From assembly GCA_030608565.1 (NCBI GenBank), contig JAUWDY010000003.1, positions 9,587-73,586 on the forward strand: 64,000 bases of DNA, in the 5' to 3' direction. Origin of the DNA: Candidatus Bathyarchaeota archaeon (GTDB lineage: Archaea > Thermoproteota > Bathyarchaeia > Bathyarchaeales > Bathyarchaeaceae). This document shows positions 24,733 to 47,320 of this stretch, one piece after another. How positions within the stretch are numbered: the first letter of the stretch is position 1; each line of letters opens with the position of its first letter. Under the pieces are notes generated by a model. That model was not told the DNA's origin and did not search any database. It saw nothing but the letters and a program-made list of their open reading frames with translations. Made by a program: the position numbers and the translations under genes.

Positions 24733-24809
24733 AGTATGAGCACTCCTCAGAAACTCATGTGAAAGCGAATTAGTGATATAAGAATTGCCATACGCATGCG
24801 TGCAAGGGT

Positions 24810-25340
24810 TTACCTTTTAACCTTCATGATTCTCAAATAAATCAGATATGCTGGAATAATGTTGATTAAAGCTTGCGTCACGTTGAACAACGCTATTGGA
24901 GCAAGCAAACCTACAACAACAGACGCTGTAATCGGATAAAATAGCTGGAGTAGATAGTAGTTTGCTATGGTCATTACACCCACTCGCGATGTGACAGCAG
25001 CAATTGATTTCGAAACAACATCTTTCCTCAACAGTGCAAAGCCAAATAAAGTCGCCAACTCAGCAATCAACTTCAAAGTTCCTCCCGGAACGTTTCCTCT
25101 AAGAAAAATAATCGAACATCCAATTAGGCAAGTGTACACTGCGCACAAGGGTCCGTAAAGCATTAAGCTAATCATGATAGGTATCCCTGTAAGGTCCCAA
25201 GAGATCCTAGGGTAAAGCGGAAACGGAATGTCGAAAGGAGGTCCACGTATGACTTCCGACAATGCTGCAAGGGCCCCTAAAATGCTGGCTGCCGCAATCT
25301 CTTTAGTTCCCATTTTTCCCAAAACACACACCACTTTCAT
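24810..25340 (-). CDS. Small polytopic membrane protein, ECF-transporter S-component-like
   Basis: 176 aa with 5-6 TM helices. ISWDLTGIPIMISLMLYGPLCAVYTCLIG resembles ECF S components. It sits between frhB paralogue 2 and metV on the same strand. Confidence 0.4.
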   Translation of the reverse strand: MKVVCVLGKMGTKEIAAASILGALAALSEVIRGPPFDIPFPLYPRISWDLTGIPIMISLMLYGPLCAVYTCLIGCSIIFLRGNVPGGTLKLIAELATLFGFALLRKDVVSKSIAAVTSRVGVMTIANYYLLQLFYPITASVVVGLLAPIALFNVTQALINIIPAYLIYLRIMKVKR

Positions 25341-25371
25341 AGAGAATTAACAATACTTGTTCTGCAATCTA

Positions 25372-26415
25372 TCAGCAAACTTCACGTGTCTTTCTCTTCT
25401 TCTTTGAGAGTTTAACCAACAAATTCAAGGCATATGTCTCCTCATCTACAGGTTTAACATTCAGGTATCCGGCTTTTTCAGCACTTGAGAACAAATTTTC
25501 CCCTCTTTCTGTCCGGATAATTATGAATGTCCATCCATCTAAACCTAGACCCCCCGTTGAGATATCTGCGAGTTCAGAGCTGAAATCATCACAGAATCCA
25601 CAGCTTTCTCGACCATATTGCTTCGCTGTCACAAGAGGAACGGTTCTGATTTCAGTTTTTGTTTTAACCAGTAATTTTCCCTTAATGTTTATTTTTATCA
25701 CGTCATTCAGGTTAAGACCTAATGTATCACGGATGTGTTTCTCGGCAAGTCCTTCGTAGGTGAAACATTCTGAGCACATAAGTCCTATTAGAAACATTAG
25801 AGGTTTAGTATGCTTTTTCAAGCCACACATCTGCATTTTTCTGATTGCGCGGATTTGGCATGGCGTACCTACAAATGCTGTGCTTGTCTTTTTCTGTTTG
25901 ATTCCCTCTGTCAAGGCTAAGATATTAGGTGAATAGAAGTATCTTGTTCCGGCGCATTCCAAAATTTCTTCAAAGGTTGTGGCTAATCTTGGAGCTGGAT
26001 ATAGAGGTTTTTCTGGGCTGATTCCCGAAACGACTGCGCTGTCAATAAGCCCATTCTCTAGAGCGAATGACAGAAGTGCAGTAACGACGCCTCCATCCTG
26101 ACAAAGCTTCACGATTCTGTCATCCACTGCTCGAGCCACAACGAGTCGACGATAAACTCCGGACTCTTCCTCAGCTTTCCTTTCTCTGCCAAACACAAAA
26201 TCTTCCATCTTGGGCCACGACCACTCGTATTGGGGACAAACTTGTGCACAGATGCCACAGACTTGACATTCTTTCACCAAGTTAGGTCCTTCCTTCATGT
26301 ACTCTAAACAACTGAAAGGGCAGACAACCACACATGCACCACAACCAACGCATTTCCCAGATGCAACAACACTTGTTCCCAGGGTTTCTTCAAAACTTAC
26401 TTTATCAAAACTCAT
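25372..26415 (-). CDS. FrhB/FpoF-family F420-binding iron-sulfur flavoprotein (paralogue 2)
   Basis: The probable start is MSFDKV at 26415; the ORF is open to 26511. Motifs CVGCGACVVVCP, CQVCGICAQVCP, GGVVTALLSFALENGLIDSAVV, FVGTPCQIRAIRK and CGFCDDFSSELADISTGG are present. Confidence 0.8.
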   Translation of the reverse strand: MSFDKVSFEETLGTSVVASGKCVGCGACVVVCPFSCLEYMKEGPNLVKECQVCGICAQVCPQYEWSWPKMEDFVFGRERKAEEESGVYRRLVVARAVDDRIVKLCQDGGVVTALLSFALENGLIDSAVVSGISPEKPLYPAPRLATTFEEILECAGTRYFYSPNILALTEGIKQKKTSTAFVGTPCQIRAIRKMQMCGLKKHTKPLMFLIGLMCSECFTYEGLAEKHIRDTLGLNLNDVIKINIKGKLLVKTKTEIRTVPLVTAKQYGRESCGFCDDFSSELADISTGGLGLDGWTFIIIRTERGENLFSSAEKAGYLNVKPVDEETYALNLLVKLSKKKRKTREVC

Positions 26416-26549
26416 AGCTAATCTCTCATAGAAAAAATAACTTGAAACCCTAGAGTTTAAAACCTTTTGGAATAATCTAGCGTACATGAGAAATTGACCT
26501 TGAAAGAACAACCTATACCAATTTCAGGTAGCCCCCACAGGCACTAATT

Positions 26550-29393: not shown

Positions 29394-30386
29394 CTAGGAT
29401 GAAGGAGATGATGCAACCGCTAAAGGTGAGATTTTCTGAGCAGCTTTCTTGATTTTGGCTTCTGCAAGCAGTTTGGGAATTATTTCTACATAGTGAACCG
29501 ACATTATATGGCACCCTGCGCACAAGCCAGATTTTTTGAGTTCCTTGATGAAGGGAGCAAAGAACTTGATATTGATCCGATCGTATTTTTCCCGTTTTTC
29601 TGCCTTGGATATTGATTGTTGTTTCACCTGTTTGAATTTGTCCAAAAGTTCCTTCGGGACCTTAACGCCGGGAACAAACTTGTCGAATTCAGCTGCGACG
29701 CCATAACTTCTCATTGGAAAGATGCCAACTAACACGGGGACACTGAACATTCTGAACATTTTCAGGAACTCAATTGTCTTATCGATATCATAGCAAACTT
29801 GCGTTTGGACAAAATCTGCCCCGTTCTCCACTTTTCGAACAACCTTAAGTATCTCCGGCTCTATGGGATCAGCATTAGGATTAGCTGCTACACCAATGTT
29901 AAATTGAGGGCGCGGGCCTTCAATATCATTACCGTTAAGGTCCTTTCCCTCGTCAACCATTCTACGAACCATGCCGGTCAAGAGGGTAGCATCCAAGTCA
30001 AAAACCGGCTTAGCATTAGGCATATCACCTAGAAGGGTATGGTCTCCAGTCAATGTCAACACGTTCTTTATCCCTAGAACTGCAGCTCCCAATAAATCGC
30101 TTGTAAGTGCTATTCGGTTCCTGTCTGCACACCTTATCTGATATATGGTTTCCATTCCAGCTTCTTTCTGGACAACATGTGCAGAGACTAAACTAGCTAC
30201 TGCGGCGTAAGAGGAGGGGTTATCAGTAACATTGCATGCCGTAACATATCCTCTCAGAGACTTGGCTTCTGCTATTACACTGGATAAATCTGTTGTTTTT
30301 ACGGGTTCGAGTTCTCCAGTAAGAACGAATTTTCCTGATTGGATTTTTTTCATTAAATTCGAAAAGGCTTTCCTCAACTTTGTCAC
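29394..30386 (-). CDS. metF: MetF-like methylene-tetrahydrofolate/-H4MPT reductase, paralogue 2
   Basis: 330 aa. By eye it is roughly 55-60% identical to paralogue 1 (FVLTGELEPVKT...NVTDNP...LTLTGDHTLLGD...FVQTQVCY), with a longer C-terminus. Confidence 0.85.
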   Translation of the reverse strand: MTKLRKAFSNLMKKIQSGKFVLTGELEPVKTTDLSSVIAEAKSLRGYVTACNVTDNPSSYAAVASLVSAHVVQKEAGMETIYQIRCADRNRIALTSDLLGAAVLGIKNVLTLTGDHTLLGDMPNAKPVFDLDATLLTGMVRRMVDEGKDLNGNDIEGPRPQFNIGVAANPNADPIEPEILKVVRKVENGADFVQTQVCYDIDKTIEFLKMFRMFSVPVLVGIFPMRSYGVAAEFDKFVPGVKVPKELLDKFKQVKQQSISKAEKREKYDRINIKFFAPFIKELKKSGLCAGCHIMSVHYVEIIPKLLAEAKIKKAAQKISPLAVASSPSS

Positions 30387-30393
30387 CTAATAC

Positions 30394-31182
30394 TCATTTC
30401 ACCACGGGTGCATCTTGGGATTTGGCATTTTTCACTTGTTTTGCCTTTTCTTTTATCGCTTTAACTATATATTTTTCAGTTTCTTCTGGCCCCATCACAG
30501 TTGTTTCTCTTCCTATTCTGTGGCTAGGAATGGCATCTATCCCTCTTGGATACGCCTCCAATCCAAATTCACGTGGAGGCCTTACCTTTCTAAAGAGATC
30601 CATTCTTCCGAATTTCTTTAAACGCTGCCATATTAAGAACCACGCGCAATCGCGTACATAGCCTCCAACCTCGCATTTGCCATCGATCATGCCTCCGCAA
30701 GGCCCGTTCATCAGACCCTTTGCGCATCTGGTCACGGGGCAGATGCCAGCGGTTTCTCCAAGGTGACAATTTCCACATGCCCGGCATCGCTCATAGTAAA
30801 GACCTATGCGTTCAACTTTACCCAAAAAATGAGTGTTAAGTCCTGGGATGCAAGGTAATTCGGCTATCTCAGCTAGGGTTTGGACGCCTGCACCACACAT
30901 GAGACACAAAAAAGCATCTATATTTTTCCCTCTTCCTTGCCTCTGAATTTCCCGCCAATCCTTTCGAGCAATGCGTTCATCACAAGGAGCCTCTACCACA
31001 ACTGTGTCAACGAACCATTTTCCCCGAAGCTTGTCAGCCATTTCTCTAACTTGTGGTTCGCCTCCAGTTTGGACAGCAGTCGCGCATGTTCCACAACCAA
31101 CGATCATAATGTTGCTATAGGATTGAAGCGTTCTCATGATTTCTTCCAAAGGTTTCTGGGTTGTTATAATCATTCTTTCCAC
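30394..31182 (-). CDS. metV: MetV-like subunit, paralogue 2
   Basis: 262 aa. It has MIVGCGTCAT, MCGAGVQTLAE, RCRACGNCHLGETAGICPVTRCAKGLMNGPCGGMIDGKCEV..DCAW and a 35-aa acidic/lysine tail. Confidence 0.8.
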   Translation of the reverse strand: MERMIITTQKPLEEIMRTLQSYSNIMIVGCGTCATAVQTGGEPQVREMADKLRGKWFVDTVVVEAPCDERIARKDWREIQRQGRGKNIDAFLCLMCGAGVQTLAEIAELPCIPGLNTHFLGKVERIGLYYERCRACGNCHLGETAGICPVTRCAKGLMNGPCGGMIDGKCEVGGYVRDCAWFLIWQRLKKFGRMDLFRKVRPPREFGLEAYPRGIDAIPSHRIGRETTVMGPEETEKYIVKAIKEKAKQVKNAKSQDAPVVK

Positions 31183-31332
31183 GCCGTTTTGTTTTTCTCT
31201 AATTCACCTTCTCGGTGCCCTCCATACTCATGGAGAGAAGATACTGTGAAGGAAGTGAAAAAAACTCGTTGTGCGATATTAAGCTTTTGCATTATCAATC
31301 TACACCCCAAATTCTGGAGCCTAGTCTTTATA

Positions 31333-31342
31333 CTTTTATAAA
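31333..31342 (+). promoter_or_regulatory. TATA-box candidate (CTTTTATAAA) for the hdrA-like operon
   Basis: It ends about 55 nt upstream of the in-frame GTG at 31398, in the metV2/hdrA divergent spacer. Confidence 0.35.
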
Positions 31343-31397
31343 CTACGATATCATTACTACAATTCCACGCCATGGACCTACAGGAGAAAAAGCAGCT

Positions 31398-34300
31398 GTG
31401 ACAAACGACATTCTAGTCATAGGCGGAGGAATAGCAGGCATAACAGCTGCTCTAAACCTTGCAGAACAAGGTCATCAAGTCTATCTCATTGAAAAAGAAC
31501 CTTCCATCGGAGGACGAATGGCTCAACTTGACAAAACTTTTCCAACACTCGATTGCTCTATATGCATTCTAGCACCAAAGATGGTTGAGGTTTCTCGTCA
31601 TCCAAATATTCATCTTTTCACATGCTCAGAAGTCGAGAAAGTTGACCCGATAGACAAAGGAAAAACGTTTCGAGTAAAAGTAAAGAAGAGACCACGTTTC
31701 GTCAACGAAGAAAAATGTACTGGATGCAGGCTCTGCACAGAGAAATGTCCAGTTAAGATACCTAACGAATTCGAAGAAAAGCTGGGCAAGCGGAAAGCCA
31801 TCTATATGCCATTTCCGCAAGCGGTGCCTGCCACAGCTGTTATAGACGAGGAAAATTGCCTCTACTTCACTAAGGGTGTATGCAAAGTCTGCCAGAAATT
31901 CTGCCCAGCAGACGCCATAGATTTTGAACAGAAGGTTGAGGAAATTAAACTGGAAGTAGCAGCTATTGTTGTTGCCACGGGTTTTGATCTCCTTGATCCT
32001 TCCGTTTTGCCTCAGTATGGATACGGTAGATTCCCGAATGTATTAACTTCTCTTGAATATGAAAGGCTAATGAACGCAGCTGGCCCAACTAGTGGAAAAA
32101 TCCTCAAGGTATCAGACAAAAAGGAGCCGGAAAAACTTGCCTTTATTCAATGTATAGGCTCTAGAAATGAGAATGTAAAACCATACTGCTCCCAGATCTG
32201 TTGCACATATGCCACAAAAGAGGCAATCGTCACCAAGGAACATAATCCAAAGATAGACATAACAATCTTCTACAACGACCTTCGGGCATCAGGGAAAGGA
32301 CACCAAGAGTTTGTGAGAAGAGCAACAGACGAATTCGGCATAAAATATGTCAAAGGTCTACCCAGCGAAGTTCAACTTGACCTCAAAACAAACCGCCTCA
32401 AAATCAGATATGCTGACCTTCTGAAAGGTGAAGTAGAACCTACCCTGGTCGACATGGTTGTTTTATGTCCAGCTGTTGTCCCGAAGAGAGACAGTCAAGA
32501 ACTAGCAAAAACTTTAGGGATAGGCACAACAGAATACGGGTTTCTAAAGGCTGTGGGGACGTCAGCTCCAGTTGACACAGTCATCCCGGGAATCTATGTG
32601 TGCGGCGCTTGTGAAGGCCCAAAAGACATATCTCACACGGTGGCCCAAGCAAGTGCTGCTTCGACAACCGCTACATCTCGAACAGAACTAGTTCATGCCG
32701 AAACCAAGCGAATCAATGTTGAAGAAAAACCTGTGGGGAAAGAATCGCGTATTGGGGTTTTTGTCTGCAACTGTGGCATCAACATCGGCACCGTTGTAGA
32801 CGTGCCAAAGGTTGTTGAGTCTGCCAAAACCTTAGATGACGTAGTTCATGCCGAGGAACTCCTGTTTGCTTGCTCTAAGGATGCTCTTGAAAAGATCAAA
32901 GATGCCATTAGAGAGTATGAGTTAAACCGTGTTATCGTCGCCTCATGCACCCCAAGAACTCATGAACCCCTCTTTCGTGACACTTGCGAAGAGTCTGGCC
33001 TCAACCCATATCTCTTTGAGATGGTTAACATTCGAGAGCACGACTCATGGGTGCATCACAAACAGCCTAAAGAAGCCACAGAAAAAGCCAAAGACCTTGT
33101 TCGAATGGCAGTGGCCAAAGCAAAACTTCTGCGTCCCCTAAAACGACTAGAAGCTGATGTAACCCCATCCGTACTAATCATCGGTGGCGGAGTTTCCGGA
33201 TTAGTGGCAGCCAAGGCTGTTGCGGACAAGGGATTCAAGACATACATCGTTGAGAGAGAAAGCAAGCTTGGAGGAAGACGCATTGAAAGTTACGCCATTC
33301 CCTTCGAAGACCTCGATGCTAAGGTTCTGCTTGACCCCATCATCAACATGGTGGAAAACCACGAAAACATAGAAGTCTTCCTTTCCGCCCGACTGAAAGA
33401 GGTTAAGGGATCCATAGGCAATTTTGACGTGGCACTGCTTCAGAACGGCAAACCTGAAACATTAAGGGTTGGAGCGATAATCGTTGCCGTAGGAACAGAA
33501 GAACTGAGACCCAAAGGACTTTACGGCTACGGAAAAAATGACAACATCGTGACACTCTCAGAGCTTAGGCAACTGGCTAGACAGAAAAAGTTGACTGGCA
33601 AAGAAAAAATTGTCATGATTCTCTGTGTAGGCGTCCGAGAAAAAGAAGGACGAACTTACTGCAGCGCCACTTGCTGCGCTGAAGCTCTAGACTGTAGCCT
33701 AGAAATTAAGGAAAAATATCCCGAAATGCAGGTTTATGTTCTCTATCGAGATATACAGTTGCCATTAGAAGGCAGGAAATATTATCGCAAGGCTCATGAA
33801 AAGGGCATAAACTTCATACGATATGTTCCTGAAAAGCAACCTGAGGTAGCTTTTCAAGGAGAGAAGTCTATTGTTGAAGTTGACGATGTAGTGGCCGGAA
33901 TCAAGCTGAAAATTACAGCAGACAAAGTTGCTTTGGCGACACCTTTAATCCCCAGAGAAACCAATCAGGATCTCGCTCCTAAACTGAAAGTTCCGCTTAA
34001 CACGCAAGGCTTCTTCCTAGAAGCTCATCCAAAGCTGAGACCCTTAGATTTTGCTACTGACGGAATCTATCTTTGCGGAACCTGTCACAGTCCTCAAAAT
34101 CTTTCTGAATGCATATATCAAGCACTTGGAGCGGCATCAAGGGCTCTTATCCCCCTTATGAAAGGCAAAGTAATGAACGAACCCATGATTGCCGAAGTAA
34201 ATGCAGACCTCTGCGTAGCTTGTGCAAACTGCGAAGTAGTATGCGAATACGGAGCCATAAAAGTTGAAGGTTATGCAAAAGTTAACCCTCTTTTATGCAA

Positions 34301-34835
34301 AGGTTGTGGAACATGCTCTGTCGAATGCCCCGCTGCTGCTATAACAATGCACTATTTCCGTGACGATCAGATTTCATCTATGATAGAGGCAGCCTTGAGC
34401 ACTAGGCCTCTAACGGACAAGCCTAGAGCCTTAGCGTTTTTCTGCAACTGGTGCGCCTATGCTGGTGCCGATATGGCAGGAGTAAGTAGGTTCGATTATC
34501 CACCAACAGCCGAAATCATTCGAGTCATGTGCTCAGGCAGAGTCAATGAAACCCATCTGCTTCAAGCCTTCTTGCAAGGGGCGGATGGAGTCCTTGTTGG
34601 TGGATGTCACCCGGGCACATGCCACTACATTTCCGGAAACTTGAAGGCTGAAGAACGAATAAGAAATGTGAAAAAATGGCTTGAAGAAGCAGGCTTGGAA
34701 CCTCAAAGACTTAGGTTAGAATGGGTGTCAGCTGGAGAGGGAAAGAAAATGGCAGAAGTTATGGAGGACTTTACAGCACAACTGGAAAAGCTGGGTCCAA
34801 GTCCCCTTAGGAAATTGCTGGAGGACAAACAATGA
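31398..34835 (+). CDS. hdrA: Giant HdrA-like flavo-iron-sulfur protein: truncated HdrA module + full HdrA module + MvhD/FlpD domain
   Basis: About 1145 aa from the GTG at 31398, with GGAG at 31383-31386; the ORF is open from 31215. Two dinucleotide folds (DILVIGGGIAG, SVLIIGGGVSG), one TFPTLDCSIC motif, four CxxCxxCxxxCP motifs, an HdrA N-domain (IGVFVCNCGINIG...VASCTPRTHE) in the middle, and a C-terminal FFCNWCAYAGAD...GGCHPGTCHY. Confidence 0.85.
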   Translation: MTNDILVIGGGIAGITAALNLAEQGHQVYLIEKEPSIGGRMAQLDKTFPTLDCSICILAPKMVEVSRHPNIHLFTCSEVEKVDPIDKGKTFRVKVKKRPRFVNEEKCTGCRLCTEKCPVKIPNEFEEKLGKRKAIYMPFPQAVPATAVIDEENCLYFTKGVCKVCQKFCPADAIDFEQKVEEIKLEVAAIVVATGFDLLDPSVLPQYGYGRFPNVLTSLEYERLMNAAGPTSGKILKVSDKKEPEKLAFIQCIGSRNENVKPYCSQICCTYATKEAIVTKEHNPKIDITIFYNDLRASGKGHQEFVRRATDEFGIKYVKGLPSEVQLDLKTNRLKIRYADLLKGEVEPTLVDMVVLCPAVVPKRDSQELAKTLGIGTTEYGFLKAVGTSAPVDTVIPGIYVCGACEGPKDISHTVAQASAASTTATSRTELVHAETKRINVEEKPVGKESRIGVFVCNCGINIGTVVDVPKVVESAKTLDDVVHAEELLFACSKDALEKIKDAIREYELNRVIVASCTPRTHEPLFRDTCEESGLNPYLFEMVNIREHDSWVHHKQPKEATEKAKDLVRMAVAKAKLLRPLKRLEADVTPSVLIIGGGVSGLVAAKAVADKGFKTYIVERESKLGGRRIESYAIPFEDLDAKVLLDPIINMVENHENIEVFLSARLKEVKGSIGNFDVALLQNGKPETLRVGAIIVAVGTEELRPKGLYGYGKNDNIVTLSELRQLARQKKLTGKEKIVMILCVGVREKEGRTYCSATCCAEALDCSLEIKEKYPEMQVYVLYRDIQLPLEGRKYYRKAHEKGINFIRYVPEKQPEVAFQGEKSIVEVDDVVAGIKLKITADKVALATPLIPRETNQDLAPKLKVPLNTQGFFLEAHPKLRPLDFATDGIYLCGTCHSPQNLSECIYQALGAASRALIPLMKGKVMNEPMIAEVNADLCVACANCEVVCEYGAIKVEGYAKVNPLLCKGCGTCSVECPAAAITMHYFRDDQISSMIEAALSTRPLTDKPRALAFFCNWCAYAGADMAGVSRFDYPPTAEIIRVMCSGRVNETHLLQAFLQGADGVLVGGCHPGTCHYISGNLKAEERIRNVKKWLEEAGLEPQRLRLEWVSAGEGKKMAEVMEDFTAQLEKLGPSPLRKLLEDKQ

Positions 34836-35350
34836 CAAAGGAGACTGTCCGAGCTTCAGAGCTTGATTCTGACTTCAAGTTTGAGGTCGCCAAGACCTAT
34901 GAGGGAAAAACAGTTCTTTGGTGTGTTCAGTGTGGCATGTGCACCTCCAACTGTCCTTATTCTGATGTCTTGGATGTGAAGCCACATCAAGTGATTAAAA
35001 TGGTTCTGTTGGGAATGAGAGAACAAGCCATTAGCTGCAAGTCGATCTGGTTATGCTCTACTTGTTTCATGTGTGCCGAAAGGTGTCCTCAGGGCGTGGA
35101 GCTTGGGAGAGTTATGTTTGCCCTAAAAAATATCGCTGCAAGAGAGAAAGGTGTTCCGGAAGGATTTAGGCTAGTTGGGCAACAAGTATTTCAAACTGGG
35201 CGTGCAATGGAAATTACCGCATTTCGTGAGAAAGAACGAGAGCGCTTGGAGCTACCAAAAACTCAGACCGATTCCGAAGACATAAAGAAACTGCTTAAAA
35301 AACTGAAGTTCGACAAACTTCTGAAAGATAAAGGAGACCAACAGTGGTGA
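34832..35350 (+). CDS. hdrC: Heterodisulfide reductase subunit C-like (2x[4Fe-4S])
   Basis: 172 aa with CVQCGMCTSNCP and CSTCFMCAERCP. It is coupled to hdrA by an ATGA overlap. Confidence 0.85.
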   Translation: MTKETVRASELDSDFKFEVAKTYEGKTVLWCVQCGMCTSNCPYSDVLDVKPHQVIKMVLLGMREQAISCKSIWLCSTCFMCAERCPQGVELGRVMFALKNIAAREKGVPEGFRLVGQQVFQTGRAMEITAFREKERERLELPKTQTDSEDIKKLLKKLKFDKLLKDKGDQQW

Positions 35351-36240
35351 AGTACTCTTATTTTCTAGGCTGCCAAGTTCCGGCTAGAGTAAACTACTGC
35401 GACCTAGCCACAAGAAGGGTTACCGAAGCTTTAGGAATAGAGTTGATTGATCTTCAAGGCGCTGGTTGTTGTGGCTGTTACCTCCGTTCCGTAGATTCCA
35501 GAGTTGCGCTTGCTCTAGCTTCAAGGATTCTAGCATTGTCTGACAAAACGGGTCTCGATTTGGTTGTGTTATGCAATAGCTGCTACTCCACCCTTGTTGA
35601 AACTAATGAATTTCTGAGAGAAAATCCGGAGTTGCGGACGGAGATTAATGAGTTGCTTGCTCCTCAAGATTTAGAATATAAAGGCAAAACCAAAGTGAAG
35701 GACATCATTCAAGTCTTCTATCATGATTACGGTCTCCACAAAATCAGCTCGAAAGTCACTAAATCTTTTGAGGGATTGAAAGTCGCTGTTCAGTACGGCT
35801 GTCACCTTCTCCGTCCTTCGAAGAGCACAAAGTTTGACAACCCGGAGGCACCACGTATTCTCGACGACCTAGTGGAGGTTACTAGGGCAAAAAGCATCTA
35901 CTGGCCCCTTAAACTTTGGTGCTGCGGCTTCCCAACACTCCCTATGAACAGAGAGATGGGCACAAGCCTAGCAAGAAACAAGCTTAGAGATGCAAAGGAT
36001 GCAGGAGCAGATTGCATGGTGACCACATGCCCTTCGTGCCAAATATCCTTCGATGTACTACAACCCAGCACTGCAAAACATTATGGAGAGGAATACAACC
36101 TTCCAGTATTGTACTATCCTCAACTCTTGGGGTTAGCCATGAACATGAGTTTCAAAGAAGTGGGCTTGCATCTGAATCGTGTTTCAACCAAACCCATCCT
36201 GCGCTTCATTGAAGAGAAACGAATTGAAGCCACTGCCTAA
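35344..36240 (+). CDS. hdrB: Heterodisulfide reductase subunit B-like (two CCG domains)
   Basis: 298 aa. The cysteine patterns LGCQ...GCCGC...CNSC and YGCH...WCCGFP...CPSC indicate two complete CCG motifs. Confidence 0.85.
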   Translation: MVKYSYFLGCQVPARVNYCDLATRRVTEALGIELIDLQGAGCCGCYLRSVDSRVALALASRILALSDKTGLDLVVLCNSCYSTLVETNEFLRENPELRTEINELLAPQDLEYKGKTKVKDIIQVFYHDYGLHKISSKVTKSFEGLKVAVQYGCHLLRPSKSTKFDNPEAPRILDDLVEVTRAKSIYWPLKLWCCGFPTLPMNREMGTSLARNKLRDAKDAGADCMVTTCPSCQISFDVLQPSTAKHYGEEYNLPVLYYPQLLGLAMNMSFKEVGLHLNRVSTKPILRFIEEKRIEATA

Positions 36241-36372: not shown

Positions 36373-37146
36373 TTAGACAGATTGACGGTATCCTGCTCTC
36401 TCCATGATTTTTTTCAACGAACCATATGCCTGGGATGTAGAGGGCAATTCAAGTAGAGATTTTCCAGACAATGAGTAGTTTTCAACTTCCTTGTCGTAGG
36501 TGATTCTGCCCAAAAATTCTAACGAGGTTCTTTTTCTAGCTTCTGTGTCCAGGGTTTCTGGAAATCGATAGCCCCCGACGACATAGAAGTTCTGGAAGTT
36601 TATCTCTATCTCTCTTGCAATTTTGTGTGCTCTTTCTATATGGGCAAAGGATTTTTTGGATGGGTCTATTATGTCAAATATATCGTTTATTTCAGCGGCG
36701 ATTCTTCTGTTGAGATGCTCCAGTCCAGCTGGCGAATCAATGAGAATATAACGGTATGTCTTGGCCAAACCTTCCAGAGCTTTTTTTAACGCCGCGTCAG
36801 GAAGACAATAACAACCTGCGATGAACTTCGTTCCAACTGCGATCAAATCAAAGGAATCTCCTTCGTATAATCCTTTGTCCCAAATTTTGCTTTCTATCCT
36901 TTCTGATGGAGGTATTCCAACAGTGGTCCCTCCCTCCTTCAGAAAAGTTGTAATCAACAATTCAGATATTGTCTTCTTCCCTTCTTCTTTAAGATCTACC
37001 CCGACCATTTCTCCCAGATTTTGGTCAGGATCTACATCCACGAGAAGCAAGGGGGTATGGCCAATTTCAATGAAATATTTTGTCATAAGCGCGACAAAAC
37101 TTGTTTTGCCGCTGCCGCCCCTACCCATAACGACAATCTTTTTCAT
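36373..37146 (-). CDS. CooC/AcsF-family Ni-insertion ATPase (divergent paralogue)
   Basis: 257 aa. It has the P-loop MGRGGSGKTS, VDVDPDQNLG, the CxC motif AGCYCLP and DSPAGLEHLNRR. Confidence 0.7.
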   Translation of the reverse strand: MKKIVVMGRGGSGKTSFVALMTKYFIEIGHTPLLLVDVDPDQNLGEMVGVDLKEEGKKTISELLITTFLKEGGTTVGIPPSERIESKIWDKGLYEGDSFDLIAVGTKFIAGCYCLPDAALKKALEGLAKTYRYILIDSPAGLEHLNRRIAAEINDIFDIIDPSKKSFAHIERAHKIAREIEINFQNFYVVGGYRFPETLDTEARKRTSLEFLGRITYDKEVENYSLSGKSLLELPSTSQAYGSLKKIMERAGYRQSV

Positions 37147-37274
37147 GTATTGCCCCCTCCAAAAATTATCAGCTTCCTATATATATTTAGCACGTTTTCT
37201 TGTCATAATGTTAAATAACAGGGGATTGGAGTCTAACATCTGAGTGGGATCTAAACAATAGCGAGGTTGCGGGG

Positions 37275-39134
37275 TTGCAGGAGATGACAGACCTCATAAA
37301 AATTTTTTTTGACCCGATGAATAAGGAGGTTGAAGTGAAGCGAGGCACAATGCTGCTCGATGCGATAAGAGAGGCGGGTATAAGAATCGAGAGCATATGT
37401 GGTGGAAAAGGCGAATGTGGAAAATGCAGGGTAATTCTCGTTAAAGGTGAAGTCTCCCGTTTATCGACCAAATGTGAAAATTTTCTCTCTCCTCAGGAGA
37501 TATCAGAGGGTCACCGTCTCGCCTGTCAGATTCGCGTCCTGAATGACAGCGAGTTTATAATCCCTGTGGAAAGCCTAGTGGTCAACCCTAAGATACTTAC
37601 TAGTACGGAAATGGGTATTGAAAGACTTGATCCCGCATCGAAAAAATATCTTGTGACTCTGCTACCACCCACTCGACATGACGAACCCCACGCGATCAAG
37701 CTTAAGGGCTACTCTGGTCCAATGCCAAAGGTAAGCGACGATATCTATAACAGCCTTCTTTCAATGGACCCTGAACAGCTTATAACCGCAACCTTGAGCA
37801 GGACAAATACCCCTCCAGAAGTCATCAACATCGAGTCAGGCGATAGAACCAGTTCAAACTATGGTCTTGCCATCGATGTTGGAACAACCACAATCGTTGC
37901 ACTCCTTTCTGACCTGACGAGCGGGCAGGTTTTAGGCGAAGCCTCTACGTTGAACAAGCAGATCACGTACGGAGAAACGCTTCTCGCAAGGATTGCTTTT
38001 TCACGCAAAGCTCATGGCGGATTGCAAAAGCTTCAACAGGCAGTTGCCCAAAGCATAAATGACCTCTTAAACAGGCTTACATCAAACGCCGGAATCAAGA
38101 ATGACGAAATAACAAGCATTTCCGCGGGTGGAAATACTGTTATGAACCATCTTTTAGCGGGGATAGACGTAGACTATCTTTGGTTTGTGGATGCGAATGA
38201 TAAGGTCTCTAGGGGCCCTATTATTAAAAAAGCGAAGGACATTGGACTCCACACAAACCCGGAGGCTAATGTCTATTGTCTTCCCAACGTAAGTCGATTC
38301 TTGGGAGGAGATGCCACCGGTGACGTAATAGCCTCTGAAATGTACAATTCTGATGAAATATCTCTTCTGGTTGATATGGGAACAAACGGGGAGATTATCC
38401 TCGGCAACAAGAATTGGCTAGTATCATGTTCCGTCGCATCTGGTCCCGCTTTCGAAGGAGCGGGCGTCAGATTTGGGATGCGCGGGATGCAAGGTGGAAT
38501 AGAACATGTTAAAATCAACCCGGAATCCTTTGAGGCGGAGTACACGGTTATCGGGAACACACTTCCGAAGGGCATCTGCGGCTCAGGCATTATCGACGCT
38601 GCGGCGGAAATGTTTTCTGTCGGCATTCTCGATTTCGGGGGAAAAATTGTTGAGGGCAGAACGCCTCTCGTTAGAAAGGGAAGAGACGGGTTGGAGTACG
38701 TCATGGTTCCTGCGGAGAAAACGGCGATCAGTCGAGACATAGTAATAACGCAGCGTGACATGGATTACATCATGGACTCGAAGGGAGCCACCTGCGGTGG
38801 GATAATGGTTTTAATGAGGAAATTCAAACTCTCCATCTACGATGTCAAGAACTTCTATCTTGCAGGAGCCTTCGGTGCATACACTGATCTGAAAAACGCG
38901 ACAAAGCTTGGAATATTCCCTGAATTTCCGAACGCGAAGACTCGCCCAATTGGAAACGGTTCGCTTTCAGGTGCATACGTGACGCTGCTATCGATGACGA
39001 AGCGAGATGAAGCGAACGCCATAGCACGGAATATGTTGTACGTCGACCTTCTTGTGGATGTCATGTTCGCGGAAACGTACTCTGAGGCAATCTACATTCC
39101 GGGCCCTAAGGAACTCTTCCCAAGCTATGCGTAA
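37275..39134 (+). CDS. RACo-type reductive activator of corrinoid Fe-S protein ([2Fe-2S] ferredoxin + ASKHA ATPase, DUF4445)
   Basis: 619 aa. It has an N-terminal plant-type ferredoxin (ICGGKGECGKCRV...LACQ), LAIDVGTTTIV and VDMGTNGEI actin-fold phosphate motifs, and CGSGIIDA. The likely ATG is at 37284. Confidence 0.8.
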   Translation: MQEMTDLIKIFFDPMNKEVEVKRGTMLLDAIREAGIRIESICGGKGECGKCRVILVKGEVSRLSTKCENFLSPQEISEGHRLACQIRVLNDSEFIIPVESLVVNPKILTSTEMGIERLDPASKKYLVTLLPPTRHDEPHAIKLKGYSGPMPKVSDDIYNSLLSMDPEQLITATLSRTNTPPEVINIESGDRTSSNYGLAIDVGTTTIVALLSDLTSGQVLGEASTLNKQITYGETLLARIAFSRKAHGGLQKLQQAVAQSINDLLNRLTSNAGIKNDEITSISAGGNTVMNHLLAGIDVDYLWFVDANDKVSRGPIIKKAKDIGLHTNPEANVYCLPNVSRFLGGDATGDVIASEMYNSDEISLLVDMGTNGEIILGNKNWLVSCSVASGPAFEGAGVRFGMRGMQGGIEHVKINPESFEAEYTVIGNTLPKGICGSGIIDAAAEMFSVGILDFGGKIVEGRTPLVRKGRDGLEYVMVPAEKTAISRDIVITQRDMDYIMDSKGATCGGIMVLMRKFKLSIYDVKNFYLAGAFGAYTDLKNATKLGIFPEFPNAKTRPIGNGSLSGAYVTLLSMTKRDEANAIARNMLYVDLLVDVMFAETYSEAIYIPGPKELFPSYA

Positions 39135-39300
39135 TATAAAGAGTTGGTTCCCAGAAAATGCAATGTAGAGAAAAAACTCAAAACTCGTTCAAATGACTCG
39201 TGGTTGGCCGATCTTAGTCAATACGGCTTCATTGCAGCGAGAAATTTTGACGCTCAAACTCTGATCTGTGCAATTCGTGAGGAAACACTTCTTTTTATTA

Positions 39301-40809
39301 TTACTCCTTCGCTTCCTCTTTCGGGGGCCATGTCTCGTCCAAGAATTTTGCTATTCCTGATGAATCCATCGGACCTACCACAATGCGCCAACCAGGCATG
39401 CCAACGTTCTTAAGCTCGTCCTCTATCGCCCCGCTTAACCTAGCCGCCCTACCCGGTATTATTAGGTGCTTATGCTTGATCTTCTCTGCTACTCCTGACT
39501 TCTTAACAGTCTCTGCGATCAATTCTGCTGTCAGATACCTTCCGGCTACGGCACTTTCAACGCTGATCCCTTCAGTATCAGCTACAACTAGGTAATAGTC
39601 CCCGCCAAATTTCTTCAGATCAGACTCGACTGTAAAGTACGTTAGGGCGTAGTTGGTGGTTAACATCAATGGAGACATCTCATCGGGCTTCCCAAATGTG
39701 AACAGTCCAGAATCAACTGCAACCGGCTTCCTAGGGTCCGTGTAGATGTTGAACCTCCATATAACAGTTGGCAGTTGAACCCATCCGTCCAAGCTATGCA
39801 TTATTAATACGTCAGCATATCTAGACATGAGAATGCCAGCAATGTACGCTTCCTTCCACGCCAGCGTCTCCTTTGAATCTTTCCCGCCGAGCCAAGCTGT
39901 GATAGGCGTCCCAATAAGCGGAAAGCCGCATAGATCATCCCCGCCTTTACACGCATTTCTTCTAATCATAGTGAAATTGTTGACGGTGTCCGATAGTCCT
40001 TCATCAGCGAATGTTCCCGGATCGAGTACTAGATCCTCAACTCCATACTCGATCAAGGTTTTTACTAGAGACCTTAGAAGATCGAGGTCGTTTGGAGCAA
40101 GGACGCTTAAGGGGCAGTTGTACATCAGCGCTAGCTCAGCCATGCTTTTCCAGTTGTCCTTCGTTGCCGCGTAAAGTAGTGGCCTCCTGTCCTGAACCAC
40201 GACTAGCCCAGCTTCCATAACGTTTGGGTCTAACGTACATAGAATGAGCGGGAATTTCGTGACCTTGGCAACGTTCTCTACGGCAGATTTGAAGATTGTT
40301 GGGTCATTCGATGTCGACCTGATGGCTGTCATATCGAGAGTGAGGTCCCTCCCAATGTAGTTATACAAGAAATTCTCTACTCGCTTTACCCTATCGATGA
40401 GAGCTTCCTCTCCGGAGAATCTTGCGTGTAGCGGCATTTCATCGGTTACATCAAAGGCTAGTGCCACTGGGTTGTGGTAGGTGAACTCGTGGCGGTACAT
40501 AACCAGCTTACCGCCTATTTTGATCGAGTGGTCTCCCGTACCGATGGTGATCTTTCTAATCACCGGCGCCAGCGTCTCTTGGAGTTTCTTGTACGCCTTT
40601 TCGTGCTCTTTTTTCAGAATCGGGGGACACCTTTCTAAAGTGACCTCTCTATTGACCAGCTTGGCCGCGAAGGCCATGCAATTTGGTTCTCCGCACTCCT
40701 CACAATTCGTCCTAGGAAGTAGCATATATACGTCGATGGGACTAAGTTTTGTTACGCCCTTCTTGACTTCCCTCTCAGTCATGCTCATCCTCCCCTTTGA
40801 TTCTTGCAT
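39301..40809 (-). CDS. cdhE: CODH/ACS gamma subunit (corrinoid Fe-S protein large subunit)
   Basis: 502 aa with the N-terminal [4Fe-4S] motif LLPRTNCEECGEPNCMAFAAKL. It is last in the cdh operon. Alternative starts lie at 40788 and 40782. Confidence 0.9.
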   Translation of the reverse strand: MQESKGRMSMTEREVKKGVTKLSPIDVYMLLPRTNCEECGEPNCMAFAAKLVNREVTLERCPPILKKEHEKAYKKLQETLAPVIRKITIGTGDHSIKIGGKLVMYRHEFTYHNPVALAFDVTDEMPLHARFSGEEALIDRVKRVENFLYNYIGRDLTLDMTAIRSTSNDPTIFKSAVENVAKVTKFPLILCTLDPNVMEAGLVVVQDRRPLLYAATKDNWKSMAELALMYNCPLSVLAPNDLDLLRSLVKTLIEYGVEDLVLDPGTFADEGLSDTVNNFTMIRRNACKGGDDLCGFPLIGTPITAWLGGKDSKETLAWKEAYIAGILMSRYADVLIMHSLDGWVQLPTVIWRFNIYTDPRKPVAVDSGLFTFGKPDEMSPLMLTTNYALTYFTVESDLKKFGGDYYLVVADTEGISVESAVAGRYLTAELIAETVKKSGVAEKIKHKHLIIPGRAARLSGAIEDELKNVGMPGWRIVVGPMDSSGIAKFLDETWPPKEEAKE

Positions 40810-43425: not shown

Positions 43426-43427
43426 TG

Positions 43428-46341: not shown

Positions 46342-46496
46342 CCTGGGAATCTTGAAGTTGTAAGAGTAGGTTCAATGTTATTTTAAGTTTTCTAAAATCT
46401 AAAAAAAGGAACTCGGAACATGAAAAGGAGTCAGTTGAAACGACGGATCATTGTACTAGAATGTTTTTAAAAGAATCCACTATTGACCAAAAGAGA

Positions 46497-47270: not shown

Positions 47271-47320
47271 AGGTGTTCCTTCAAGCTTCAATATTCAGTT
47301 TGCTAGGCTATTTATTGTAG

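Follow-up and report, generated by a model that had tools for sequence, protein, structure and literature searches.

The 64-kb window, the whole stretch of Bathyarchaeon DNA analysed here, carries a second metV-metF pair arranged divergently to genes for an HdrA-MvhD fusion, HdrC and HdrB, and we tentatively propose that their products form one redox complex (MetV2F2-MvhD::HdrA(A')-HdrC-HdrB) in which MetVF may sit at the MvhD port. All five genes were found by Pfam on the ORFs of the window at the coordinates of the sequence-only reading, with metF2-metV2 on the minus strand and hdrA-mvhD, hdrC and hdrB on the plus strand constituting two divergent units, not a single operon. Identical or near-identical proteins in the same gene order were present on independent metagenome contigs, and relatives with 72-98% MetF identity kept the same arrangement, so a chance arrangement could be excluded.

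The catalytic subunit of a MetF-type methylene-H4MPT/H4F reductase was encoded by metF2 (29394..30386, minus strand, 330 aa, GTG start at 30386), which matched Pfam MTHFR (PF02219, E=1e-35), scored under all NCBIfam MTHFR equivalog cut-offs and was related only distantly to MTHFRs of solved structure (E about 1e-12). In all MetF2 orthologues (72-98% identity) an hdrA was adjoining. The Cys-rich Fe-S subunit MetV2 (30394..31173, minus strand, 259 aa, ATG start at 31173) contained 14 Cys and a clade-specific C-terminal tail of 30-40 aa; its ORF (30394-31182) matched Pfam DUF5981/MetV (PF12225, E=3e-32), its stop lay 7 nt ahead of the metF2 start, and no solved homologue was found in a structure search. 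Translation most likely starts at ATG 31173 rather than GTG 31182, since MIITTQKP resembles MIIVQQKP of MetV1 and gene callers give 259 aa.

The paralogous pair at 23-24.7 kb comprised metF1 (23132-24046) and metV1 (24046-24732), both detected by Pfam on the minus strand, with a small membrane protein gene (24810-25340, minus strand) between metV1 and frhB2 (25372-26511, minus strand; NCBIfam FrhB subfamily, 242 bits, under the 269-bit cut-off). This order, frhB2-membrane protein-metV1-metF1 (23132..26511), recurred in two other loci (L005 and L072), and the frhB2-metV1F1 operon is a candidate for a second route of this organism, linked to F420H2 and working without bifurcation. MetF2 and MetF1 shared 49% identity and MetV2 and MetV1 46%, values of ancient paralogues by sequence and not of the recent duplicates that the earlier reading had considered as an objection. 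The nearest homologues of MetF and MetV were all archaeal, and bacterial enzymes were only distantly related.

The spacer between metV2 and hdrA was 224 nt long (31174..31397), while the 215 nt given earlier hold only with the GTG 31182 start. The start of hdrA is GTG 31398 and not GTG 31215, the first of the ORF, because a GGAG Shine-Dalgarno (about 31383-31386) is conserved and coding is conserved from there in four related loci. An alignment of the spacers of the window, L005, L004, L006 and L001 revealed a conserved block, GCGATATTAAGCTTTTG (31273-31289, minus strand), as candidate metV2 promoter, and a TATA-like element, CTTTATACTTTTATAAAC (31326-31343), as candidate hdrA promoter, both putatively assigned from the archaeal TATA-box consensus. 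Such a shared divergent promoter region does not by itself demonstrate co-regulation.

The hdrA-mvhD gene (31398-34835, plus strand) encodes 1145 aa, and Pfam detected two FAD/Pyr_redox regions and FlpD/MvhD (PF02662) in its ORF (31215-34835). The fusion of MvhD described before was real, but alignments to 5ODC_A revealed that "HdrA" consists of two HdrA-like modules in tandem, which had been missed. Module 1 (31398..32720, plus strand, residues 1-441) aligned to 5ODC_A residues 143-562 (phmmer, E=5e-138), with neither N-terminal nor C-terminal domain in this alignment. Its TrxR-like FAD domain bore the Cys pair C53/C56 (Cys194/197 of 5ODC), and the module also contained an inserted ferredoxin domain of the 2x[4Fe-4S] type (C107-C169), the ligands C252, C264, C268 and C269 of the TrxR cluster, and the bifurcating-flavin signature E222/K274, equivalent to E356/K409; all these residues were invariant in 73 family members and 28 locus homologues. 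Module 2 (32721..34412, plus strand, residues 442-1005) aligned in phmmer to two stretches of 5ODC_A, 2-237 and 319-648, residues 238-318 being deleted, and possessed an N-terminal Fe-S domain (C457, C459, C492, C517) and a C-terminal 2x[4Fe-4S] ferredoxin domain (C939-C977). Its TrxR-like FAD domain had neither the inserted ferredoxin domain nor the Cys pair, which module 2 lacked in all 23 homologues as well, and the Glu/Lys signature was lost (E356 to R724, K409 to D765). The MvhD domain (34413..34835, plus strand, residues about 1006-1145) carried the [2Fe-2S] cysteines C1016, C1019, C1045, C1070 and C1075 and matched FlpD (Pfam, E=2e-52), 5ODC_D (E=3e-47) and 7BKB_F (E=1e-47), with a Foldseek TM of 0.94-0.96 to MvhD chains; in L004, mvhD was a separate 146-aa gene. 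The AlphaFold model of the whole chain (pLDDT 88.9, pTM 0.89) indicates a confidently packed multi-domain body, whose best Foldseek matches were HdrA and MvhD chains.

By sequence, HdrA was shown to be an intramolecular pseudo-dimer. The methanogen (HdrABC-MvhAGD)2 complex has two symmetric bifurcation paths, but here the domain and residue losses of the two modules are complementary and leave a single complete path. In Mvh-Hdr and Elp-Hdr, electrons cross between protomers from MvhD's [2Fe-2S] centre to Cys202'/205', FAD' of the partner, the shuttle cluster HA3 and HA5'/HA6' (PMC13580544; PMC9012536), and the elements kept in the tandem HdrA were exactly those of this path.

The product of hdrC (34832..35350, plus strand, 172 aa) was a 2x[4Fe-4S] HdrC-like protein with two CxxCxxCxxxCP motifs (Pfam Fer4_8/17). 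HdrB (35344..36240, plus strand, 298 aa) matched Pfam CCG in two stretches (E=2e-26), and both CCG domains were intact as had been noted, the first with C10, C42C43G and C77xxC80 and the second with C153, C193C194G and C229xxC232. Against the CoB-CoM equivalog models, HdrC reached 103 bits (TIGR03290, under the 160-bit cut-off) and HdrB 281 bits (TIGR03288, under the 345-bit cut-off). The hdrA stop overlaps hdrC by 4 nt and hdrC overlaps hdrB by 7 nt, a layout predicting translational coupling of hdrA-hdrC-hdrB. With its E356/K409 signature, its inserted ferredoxin domain and intact CCG motifs in HdrB, the Hdr core has the full set of sequence features of bifurcating enzymes, which bears out its earlier description as potentially bifurcating.

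The immediate context (36373..47291), assigned by Pfam, consisted of a cooC-like gene (36373-37146, minus strand), a RACo corrinoid activator (37275-39134, plus strand), the cdh operon for CODH/ACS (39301-46341, minus strand) and a second cooC (46497-47291, minus strand), and the hdr-cooC-RACo-cdh neighbourhood was also present in L004 and L005. Mtd, CofE and Cdh were encoded nearby, so the H4MPT/F420 context reported before is real; the assignment of the C1 carrier, H4MPT or H4F, would come solely from the neighbouring Mtd. Domain searches agreed that mcr was absent from the 64-kb window. The hydrogenase at 1-5 kb, formerly called Mbh-type, was indeed of the [NiFe] kind, but its genes belong to a Nuo/Fpo-like cluster. 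In the hdr operon, Pfam and NCBIfam showed neither a hydrogenase, Fdh or FrhB nor an NAD(P)H domain.

The metVF-hdr pairing was not confined to this locus. A tandem hdrA lay within 5 kb of metVF for 23 of 85 sampled archaeal metF genes, and for 12 of the 37 with full flanks, in Bathyarchaeia, Heimdall-, Loki/Promethearchaeota, Syntrophoarchaeum and Halobacteriota. Adjacency was kept in five or more clades of MetF and in several phyla, although order and orientation varied between divergent and co-directional, including single co-directional operons. This recurrence strongly backs the MetVF-Hdr partnership suggested earlier and supports a functional complex. All members of the MetF2 clade with readable flanks were Hdr-linked. 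The Hdr-linked share of archaeal metVF loci was 27-32%, and about 70% had no nearby hdrA, so MetVF clearly works with other partners too. In addition, MetF1-type pairs adjoined hdrA-mvhD in L044 and L083, and both metVF pairs stood in tandem beside hdr in L001, which contradicts the idea of an F420 route for pair 1 and an Hdr route for pair 2 as fixed properties of the paralogues.

Several loci bear on the docking site. The mvhD gene or the MvhD end of hdrA adjoined metV in L008, L043, L047, L049, L050, L060 and L083, and small stand-alone MvhD-like genes were directly upstream of metV in L018, L021, L025 and L076. In L088 and L089, a MetV-MetF fusion came directly after HdrA-MvhD and hdrCB was not found within +/-7 kb, and in L090 and L091 the same HdrA-MvhD core was accompanied by hdrCB-frhB-GltB-like genes without metVF. 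MetVF and HdrCB would thus be independent modules, since each occurs with the HdrA-MvhD core without the other nearby.

In the proposed complex, MetVF would dock at MvhD, the site where the exchangeable donor modules Mvh (H2), Fdh (formate) and Elp (F420H2) are attached in methanogens, and the Fe-S clusters of MetV may bridge the flavin of MetF and the [2Fe-2S] cluster of MvhD. Module 2, with its N-terminal Fe-S domain, C-terminal ferredoxin domain and fused MvhD, would act as the mobile arm, and module 1 as its target in the role of the partner protomer, offering the bifurcating FAD, the Cys pair and, as the exit of low-potential electrons to ferredoxin, the inserted ferredoxin domain. The high-potential branch would be formed by HdrC and HdrB, whose non-cubane-cluster motifs are intact. 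The complex may thereby reversibly couple methyl-/methylene-H4MPT to ferredoxin and a putative HdrB disulfide: in the oxidative direction, methyl-H4MPT oxidation would supply CODH/ACS and the membrane [NiFe] hydrogenase with reduced ferredoxin, and in the reductive (acetogenic) direction, reduced ferredoxin and dithiol would confurcate onto methylene-H4MPT. The potentials are about -310 mV for methyl-/methylene-H4MPT, about -500 mV for ferredoxin and, if it resembles CoM-S-S-CoB, about -140 mV for the HdrB disulfide. On energetic grounds it speaks for MetVF as donor that F420H2, whose potential lies only about 30-70 mV below that of methyl-H4MPT, has been proven to donate electrons to Hdr (PMC5296606; also Elp, PMC13580544). 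MetVF would also be the only candidate donor, since the operon encodes no other donor module.

In bacterial models MetVF is instead placed behind HdrCB, as in the Moorella/Sporomusa MetVF-HdrCBA-MvhD precedent (PMC9430772; PMC6085437), and the earlier reading had likewise taken MetVF as the high-potential acceptor. The acceptor would be reached via HdrC/HdrB or straight from HdrA. A separate donor would either be oxidised at HdrA or dock on MvhD; it could be F420H2, as for HdrA2B2C2, or NAD(P)H, or H2 through an Mvh whose genes lie elsewhere. The bifurcating FAD would split electrons between methylene-H4MPT/H4F and ferredoxin. We regard this as less likely here, yet several observations speak for it: F420H2 can be oxidised directly by HdrA-MvhD fusions (PMC5296606) and the protein scored above the NCBIfam HdrA2 cut-off, module 1 of relatives at 67% identity contains a GltD/NfnB-like NAD(P)H domain, and an HdrB bait retrieved MetF in S. 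ovata (PMC9430772). In the same pull-downs MetF was recovered with MvhD as bait, and MetV as bait brought down HdrA but no HdrB (PMC9430772); together with mvhD adjoining metV and HdrA-MvhD/MetVF occurring without hdrCB, these baits favour docking at the MvhD port. An NAD(P)H/GltD domain is missing from the HdrA of the window, as is a donor module from the operon, and the disulfide-reducing CCG motifs, though fully conserved, would be left without a role. With H4MPT as carrier (Mtd adjacent), an acceptor at about -310 mV would leave little or no driving force for F420H2 or NADH to reduce this acceptor along with ferredoxin. The bacterial-style model is also weakened by the relatives pairing HdrA-MvhD and MetVF without nearby hdrCB, and because each partner pairs with the core alone, HdrCB would not be a dedicated wire to MetVF. 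Other observations count against the proposed complex: HdrB and HdrC fell under the CoB-CoM cut-offs in a Bathyarchaeon without known CoM/CoB, the units in the window are divergent, and a chimeric-query search found no MvhD-MetV fusion protein.

It is improbable that there is no dedicated complex, with neighbours in a Wood-Ljungdahl/redox island only, MetV2F2 using free ferredoxin (as proposed for clostridial MetVF) or another carrier, and the Hdr core serving other partners. Stand-alone MetVF was active with reduced ferredoxin in vitro (PMC8760232; PMC8515935), S. ovata Hdr proteins did not tightly co-purify with MetVF (PMC9430772), and the many metVF loci lacking hdrA, the promiscuous core (L090, L091) and the divergent transcription in the window fit this view. 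Against it stand the adjacency held across clades and phyla despite rearrangement, the wholly Hdr-linked MetF2 clade and the immediate succession of fused HdrA-MvhD and fused MetVF in L088 and L089; by our own estimate, from few hdrA per genome, chance would place hdrA within 5 kb of a given gene in roughly 1-2% of cases, against 27-32% observed. Still less probable is a non-bifurcating wire, where HdrA-MvhD channels electrons one way between ferredoxin (inserted domain) and MetVF as a ferredoxin-dependent methylene reductase, with HdrCB a side reaction or vestigial. HdrA homologues without bifurcation exist (work cited in PMC9430772), module 2 lost the Glu/Lys signature, and hdrCB is not neighbouring in L088 and L089; however, E222/K274 and the Cys pair are invariant in module 1, and HdrC and HdrB retain all cluster ligands and overlap with the hdrA unit. 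Passing electrons from about -500 to -310 mV would presumably waste about 190 mV with no energy conservation.

The tentatively preferred complex belongs to a kind already known from Moorella and Sporomusa and noted for Syntrophoarchaeum, of which the archaeal tandem form is a variant. The same six protein functions are clustered in Moorella thermoacetica and Sporomusa ovata, and the acetogen HdrA also has two TrxR-like flavin modules, with the extra one N-terminal and the one bearing the N-domain and C-terminal ferredoxin C-terminal; in S. ovata, as here, only the first carries the Glu/Lys signature (PMC9430772). In contrast to S. ovata and Moorella, where the C-terminal parts are reported without it (PMC9430772), module 1 of the window keeps the inserted ferredoxin domain. 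The window also differs from Moorella in lacking the GltD/NAD(P)H domain, and from acetogens in its fused MvhD, two divergent units and archaeal H4MPT/F420 context (Mtd, CofE, Cdh) instead of THF.

Every HdrA domain and cluster ligand of methanogen Mvh-Hdr (5ODC), Fdh-Hdr (7BKB) and Elp-Hdr (8RVU) has a counterpart here, as have the Cys pair, E356/K409, MvhD, HdrC and the CCG motifs of HdrB; the folds match (Foldseek TM up to 0.96), and so does the principle that a module docks by way of an MvhD homologue. Where methanogens have a symmetric homodimer of HdrA, the window has one polypeptide whose complementary losses leave a single path; the window has no mcr, HdrB and HdrC are under the CoB-CoM equivalog cut-offs, and no hydrogenase, Fdh or Elp is nearby, with MetVF the sole candidate module. 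The best NCBIfam match of HdrA-MvhD was NF040770 (HdrA2; 1207 bits against a cut-off of 1100, over three stretches), and the F420H2- and ferredoxin-dependent HdrA2B2C2 of Methanosarcina acetivorans shares the C-terminal MvhD fusion, whereas HdrA2 has one HdrA module (777-aa model) and free F420H2 as partner, instead of two modules and, probably, MetVF. The ANME fused or tandem HdrA3/4, 5/6 and 12/13 are kindred paralogues (Chadwick et al. 2022, PMC9012536), but in HdrA3/4 the N-domain module comes first and here the Cys-pair module. In Ca. Syntrophoarchaeum, whose metFV-hdrA-mvhD clusters are the L013 and L033 of our sample, the MetFV link was reported for two genomes only (PMC9012536); it now extends to Bathyarchaeia and several Asgard lineages, with hdrCB. 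The pairing is a good candidate for how, in carbon fixation, archaea with MetF in place of Mer link the methylene/methyl step to ferredoxin. Mer probably serves the same step of the archaeal Wood-Ljungdahl methyl branch, judging from the Mtd/Cdh context, with an unrelated fold and cofactor logic and free F420H2, whereas MetF (PF02219) works with the Fe-S partner MetV and an Hdr- or FrhB-linked electron source.

Five genes were borne out by the ORF map and Pfam scan where the sequence-only reading had placed them, and metVF, hdrA, hdrB, hdrC and mvhD all lie inside 6.9 kb of the window. On the minus strand are metF2 (29394-30386; PF02219, E=1e-35) and the adjacent metV2 (30394-31182 as ORF; PF12225, E=3e-32), with 7 nt from the end of metV2 to the start of metF2. 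On the plus strand, a long hdrA-mvhD ORF (31215-34835), in which two FAD/Pyr_redox regions precede an MvhD/FlpD domain at the C-terminus (E=2e-52), is followed by hdrC (34832-35350) and hdrB (35344-36240), with overlaps of 4 nt (hdrA/hdrC) and 7 nt (hdrC/hdrB). HdrB, with two CCG stretches in Pfam, has both CCG motifs intact in the Cys motif map, as had been claimed, and HdrC has both CxxCxxCxxxCP motifs, i.e. two [4Fe-4S] motifs; their scores (TIGR03288 and TIGR03290) were below the equivalog cut-offs. The stated paralogy with the metV1-metF1 pair (23132-24732) was also found (MetF 49%, MetV 46% identity).

In a spacer alignment with four related loci, coding conservation of hdrA began at GTG 31398, with GGAG upstream. 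Since metV2 starts at ATG 31173, the spacer is 224 nt; the divergent arrangement that had been described stands, while its length of 215 nt would only be obtained with an alternative GTG at 31182. The window thus holds two divergent units 224 nt apart, and not the single transcription unit of Moorella (hdrCBA-mvhD-metVF). Most of the spacer has diverged between the window and its relatives, with two conserved blocks left: GCGATATTAAGCTTTTG at 31273-31289, whose reverse complement reads TTAATAT, and the TATA-like CTTTATACTTTTATAAAC at 31326-31343, 55-72 nt upstream of the hdrA start. They look like back-to-back archaeal promoters, which is an inference and no proof of co-regulation. A 9-nt direct repeat, TTCCACGCC (31177-31185 and 31363-31371, near both start codons), was rejected as a regulatory site: about 0.14 chance matches were estimated in 271 nt, its second copy was not conserved in the related locus L005, and it is probably due to chance.

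The MetV2 clade carries a C-terminal tail of 30-40 aa (IDAIPSHRIGRETTVMGPEETEKYIVKAIKEKAK...; window 30394-30520, MetV2 residues ~218-259), which was kept in L001, L005 and L008 and missing in MetV1 and other MetV clades; it could serve as a docking element. A PDB search with MetV gave no match, hence there was no structural template for docking arguments. In the cofE-metF2 interval, a segment of about 0.9 kb (28334-29250) with small ORFs, one of which encodes a winged-helix HTH_24 protein (28691-28966, minus strand), is an indel since it is missing from the 96%-identical L005. AsnC/Lrp-type regulators flank hdrA in loci L088 and L090.

The HdrA-MvhD protein, numbered from GTG 31398, has 1145 aa and two TrxR-like flavin modules (GxGxxG at residues 9 and 596). 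Module 1 (residues 1-441) aligned with residues 143-562 of 5ODC_A, the HdrA chain of the methanogen Mvh-Hdr structure (E=5e-138), and contains the TrxR-like FAD domain with an inserted ferredoxin domain (2x[4Fe-4S], C107-C169; its second motif is an unusual CX7CX2CX3CP). It keeps the Cys194/197 pair (C53/C56), the TrxR cluster and Glu356/Lys409 (E222/K274), whose equivalents are a signature for recognising bifurcating flavins. Module 2 (residues 442-1005) aligned with 5ODC_A 2-237 and 319-648 and has a C-terminal ferredoxin domain (2x[4Fe-4S], C939-C977); the bifurcation signature is gone, with R724 and D765 at the Glu356/Lys409 positions. MvhD occupies residues ~1006-1145 (E=3e-47 to the MvhD chain 5ODC_D). 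AlphaFold modelled the whole chain with pLDDT 88.9 and pTM 0.89, and Foldseek matched it to HdrA chains (TM up to 0.96) and MvhD chains (0.94-0.96). The HdrA2 subclass family NF040770 scored 1207 bits against a cut-off of 1100, and the match falls into three stretches, as the HdrA part is present twice. The GltD/PF14691 NAD(P)H domain was not matched in the window HdrA by Pfam or NCBIfam.

In methanogen Hdr, the exit route of the low-potential electron runs by way of the shuttle cluster HA3 to HA5'/HA6', which belong to the inserted ferredoxin domain of the partner (PMC13580544, PMC9012536). By alignment and Cys map, the N-terminal domain is in module 2 only, as is the mobile arm, and the Cys pair, the bifurcating FAD and the inserted ferredoxin domain are in module 1 only, so exactly one complete cross-protomer path is left. 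Instead of a symmetric homodimeric HdrA with two paths, one fused chain with complementary losses was found, and its residues show what is predicted to be a single bifurcation path. In the methanogen type, Cys197 of the partner protomer completes the N-terminal-domain cluster; the parts required for this appear to be present here, split between the modules. All cluster ligands, C53/C56 and E222/K274 were invariant across 73 family members, and the Cys pair was always missing from module 2 in 23 homologues from the fetched loci. Residue 1074 (window 34617-34619) is Thr, at a position where at least 90% of the family have Asp; its counterpart in M. marburgensis MvhD, Asp71, was reported to help bind a ligand near the Cys pair (PMC13580544).

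The distribution of this arrangement was surveyed with an archaeal MetF profile against one genome per species (GTDB), with 79 loci kept and neighbourhoods (flanks up to 10 kb) mapped by tblastn of window proteins. A tandem hdrA was within 5 kb of 23 of the 85 metF genes, and of 12 of the 37 having at least 5 kb on both sides; an MvhD-like gene alone was near nine further metF genes. The chance of an hdrA within 5 kb was estimated at about 1-2%, with few hdrA genes per genome. Linked loci belong to Bathyarchaeia (L001, L004-L008, L044, L083), Heimdallarchaeota (L010), Promethearchaeota (L047, L049, L052, L054, L060, L066, L069, L073, L081), Syntrophoarchaeum (L013, L033), and Halobacteriota and relatives (L051, L056, L065). 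Synteny was upheld when hdrA, hdrB, hdrC and mvhD were sought together with metVF: all were kept in L001, L004, L005, L010 and nine Promethearchaeota loci. The orders were divergent, hdrA-mvhD-metV-metF, hdrA-mvhD-hdrC-hdrB-metV-metF and metV-metF-hdrA-mvhD-hdrC-hdrB, with co-directional single clusters in L008, L010, L052 and others. Functional coupling of metVF and hdrA is argued because adjacency outlasts rearrangement across phyla, and this synteny suggests that MetVF and Hdr could be physical partners in the window organism. In a rough NJ distance tree without support values, used for clade membership and not for rooting or transfer, every MetF2 clade member with readable flanks was Hdr-linked, and at least four further clades of MetF showed the link as well. 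MetF2, HdrA and MetV2 all had their nearest homologues in Bathyarchaeia metagenome-assembled genomes.

The contig L005 (33 kb) has 93-96% DNA identity and a common gene order with the window. It was deposited as 'uncultured Pirellulales bacterium' (CAYTTK010000009.1) and is probably mis-binned, since its genes (Cdh, Mtd, HdrA-MvhD) are archaeal; L039 (Patescibacteria) and L067 (Nitrosotalea) may have been misassigned likewise. In L006, a 'complete' relative, the region from hdrA module 2 to RACo seemed to be lost, but this was a 100-N scaffold gap and no deletion. Three Promethearchaeota loci (L047, L049, L060) have two successive tandem hdrA-mvhD genes before metV-metF, with hdrC-hdrB upstream, and module 2 in these copies keeps the Glu/Lys signature, unlike in Bathyarchaeia.

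The contigs of four HdrA-MvhD homologues were inspected further. L088 (7001-13561) encodes a 1617-aa variant followed by a fused MetV-MetF, with no hdrCB within 7 kb; a GltD/NfnB-like insert separates C154 from C162 in the inserted ferredoxin domain. L089 has a 1149-aa HdrA-MvhD, then a fused MetV-MetF and a small ferredoxin, beside a cdh operon, and no hdrCB nearby. L090 (7001-15179) and L091 (4398-11925) show hdrA-mvhD-hdrC-hdrB-frhB-(GXGXG)-GltB-like genes and no metVF. These arrangements make the tandem HdrA-MvhD a general core to which MetVF and HdrCB attach independently. In many loci the immediate neighbour of metV was mvhD or the MvhD end of hdrA; small stand-alone MvhD-like genes were directly upstream of metV in L018, L021, L025 and L076, and frhB was nearby in L021, L064 and L082. 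When a chimera of MvhD and MetV2 was searched against 5.8 billion proteins, none of the best 120 matches combined PF02662 with PF12225, which neither supports nor counts against docking of MetVF at MvhD.

In the relatives P0129, P0133 and P0145 (67-69% identical), a GltD/NfnB-like NAD(P)H domain, about 470 aa long, interrupts the inserted ferredoxin domain of module 1, exactly where the first Cys of its second cluster motif would be followed by the second; such relatives have a fused MetV-MetF next and no hdrCB nearby. Fused MetV-MetF, one polypeptide of about 540 aa, was seen in L062, L076, L083, L088 and L089 (several Bathyarchaeia) and also in P0323. The hosts of L090 and L091 are one Baldrarchaeota and one Bathyarchaeota genome, and their glutamate-synthase-like genes (GXGXG, GltB/FMN) appear to mark another kind of Hdr-linked module, in which F420 and a GltB-like enzyme may take part.

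Besides archaeal housekeeping genes, tRNA intron endonuclease included, the window contains cooC, RACo, a complete cdh operon, a second cooC and an AMP-forming acetyl-CoA synthetase. A hydrogenase of Mbh type had been read at 1-5 kb. In its 49-kDa-type large subunit (2788-3963) neither of the [NiFe] motifs (RICGICSHAH and DPCFCCMDR) has been lost, so it is a true group-4-like hydrogenase, but the surrounding cluster is a Nuo/Fpo-like membrane complex (1470-5256, 8046-11577 and 11905-12999); it resembles the 'Hfo' proposed for termite-gut Bathyarchaeia (PMC7886697). Its FpoF/FrhB-like gene (11905-12999) adjoins antiporter-like subunits, and is one of two FrhB homologues in the window. As had been noted, mcr is absent from the window; nor were mer, mvhAG, fdh (fdhAB) or elp-like genes found there, by the cluster or elsewhere, and the combination of a CoM-S-S-CoB substrate with an Mvh, Fdh or Elp donor was not seen within the window. 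Mtd of the H4MPT type (PF01993, E=2e-119) and CofE are encoded near metV2F2, which suggests H4MPT as the C1 carrier, and MetF2 was below all MTHFR equivalog cut-offs.

The other pair forms an operon of frhB2, a membrane protein gene, metV1 and metF1, and frhB2 (N-terminal 2x[4Fe-4S] region, FrhB N and C domains) is upstream of metV1F1 also in L005 and L072. The proposal that this pair serves an F420 route fits the window, where frhB2-metV1F1 would be an F420H2-linked reductase, while a fixed division, with MetF2 as Hdr partner and MetF1 as FrhB partner in every clade, was rejected: MetF1-type pairs stand beside hdrA-mvhD in L044 and L083, and both pairs lie in tandem by hdr in L001 (metV2-metF2-metV1-metF1). 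In L001 (9201-12661; 76% MetF identity) the paralogous pairs are head-to-tail and divergent from hdrA-mvhD-hdrC-hdrB, which raises the possibility of mixed MetVF assemblies. The small membrane protein between frhB2 and metV1 (24810-25340, minus strand) has a weak ECF S-component match (E=1e-7). The stretch 24792-25474 has no nucleotide match in L005 or L072, with flanks 93-96% identical, and the slot is filled there by another protein of about 176 aa (30% identity), which looks like a cassette-like replacement within the operon.

Four readings of the mechanism were weighed. The best of them, held at a little under even confidence, has MetVF docked at MvhD, and filling three ports with encoded parts is the most economical model: MetVF would sit at the MvhD port, HdrCB and a disulfide would form the high-potential branch, and ferredoxin would be served at the inserted ferredoxin domain. 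Couples for such a reaction are CH2=H4MPT/CH3-H4MPT at about -310 to -330 mV, ferredoxin at about -500 mV and a disulfide at -140 mV. F420, a proven Hdr donor as F420H2 (PMC5296606), lies close to the methyl-H4MPT couple at -340 to -380 mV. Because of this nearness to F420, two methyl-H4MPT oxidations could reduce ferredoxin and the disulfide near equilibrium, and the coupled reaction would be reversible. Methanogens exchange Mvh, Fdh and Elp at the MvhD port (PMC13580544). Pull-downs in S. ovata, where MvhD as bait recovered MetF and MetV as bait recovered HdrA and not HdrB (PMC9430772), also fit MetVF at this port. It is tentatively proposed that MetVF is a fourth such module, with methyl-H4MPT itself as the bifurcation donor; the enzyme would then be a previously undescribed methyl-H4MPT:ferredoxin/disulfide oxidoreductase, and in reverse a confurcating methylene reductase.

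The bacterial-type model, to which the sequence-only reading was assigned, takes methylene-H4MPT as the high-potential acceptor, with a separate donor feeding HdrA/MvhD. It is rather unlikely here: the donor would have to lie near -400 mV, and the genes found encode no such donor; the model would be reasonable only with an H4F-like carrier (-200 mV, PMC9430772) or in the GltD-bearing relatives. That no dedicated MetVF-Hdr complex is formed at all is judged improbable, and a non-bifurcating wire is given the smallest chance of the four.

The electron partner of MetF, which stands in for Mer in many uncultured archaea, among them Bathyarchaeia, Asgard archaea, Syntrophoarchaeum and ANME-1, is a stated open question (PMC9012536), to which conserved metVF with a single-path Hdr core would be a concrete answer. 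Such a link would alter the energy yields estimated for acetogenesis in archaea and for their oxidation of methyl groups and alkanes. MetVF as a fourth MvhD-docked module, if true, would explain how the methyl branch is joined to low-potential ferredoxin in archaea that lack Mer (Bathyarchaeia, Asgard archaea, Syntrophoarchaeum, and possibly lineages like ANME-1), and would imply a thiol/disulfide cofactor cycle in non-methanogenic archaea. The intact HdrB, in a window without sign of methanogenesis, raises the question of which disulfide cycles. With its single path, the asymmetric tandem HdrA-MvhD is a natural 'half-machine' that lends itself to structural work on flavin-based bifurcation.

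In bacteria, the Hdr-type MetVF reductase is already known (PMC6085437, PMC9430772), and Chadwick et al. pointed out metFV-hdrA-mvhD clusters in two genomes of Syntrophoarchaeum and suggested that MetF and HdrA might form a complex (PMC9012536). For Bathyarchaeia or Asgard archaea, no description of a MetVF-Hdr cluster or of the single-path anatomy was found in the openly available literature, and the Bathyarchaeia genome papers available there made no mention of the cluster. The window shares with the Moorella/Sporomusa type the adjacent metV and metF, the clustered hdrA, hdrB, hdrC and mvhD and the two-module HdrA, and with methanogen HdrABC-MvhD the bifurcating site, both ferredoxin domains and the HdrB/HdrC motifs. 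The NADH-oxidising GltD-like domain of Moorella HdrA is absent from the window HdrA and present in P0129, P0133 and P0145. The principle of complementary loss is the same in ANME HdrA3/4 and Moorella HdrA (PMC9012536), though the modules of the window protein come in the opposite order to those of ANME HdrA3/4; in S. ovata HdrA the order agrees with the window, but the inserted ferredoxin domain is reportedly missing (PMC9430772). The cluster in the window stands apart from the bacterial type in that it keeps the inserted ferredoxin domain, has MvhD fused to HdrA and no NAD(P)H domain, lies in an H4MPT/F420 context and belongs to an arrangement that is widespread among archaea.
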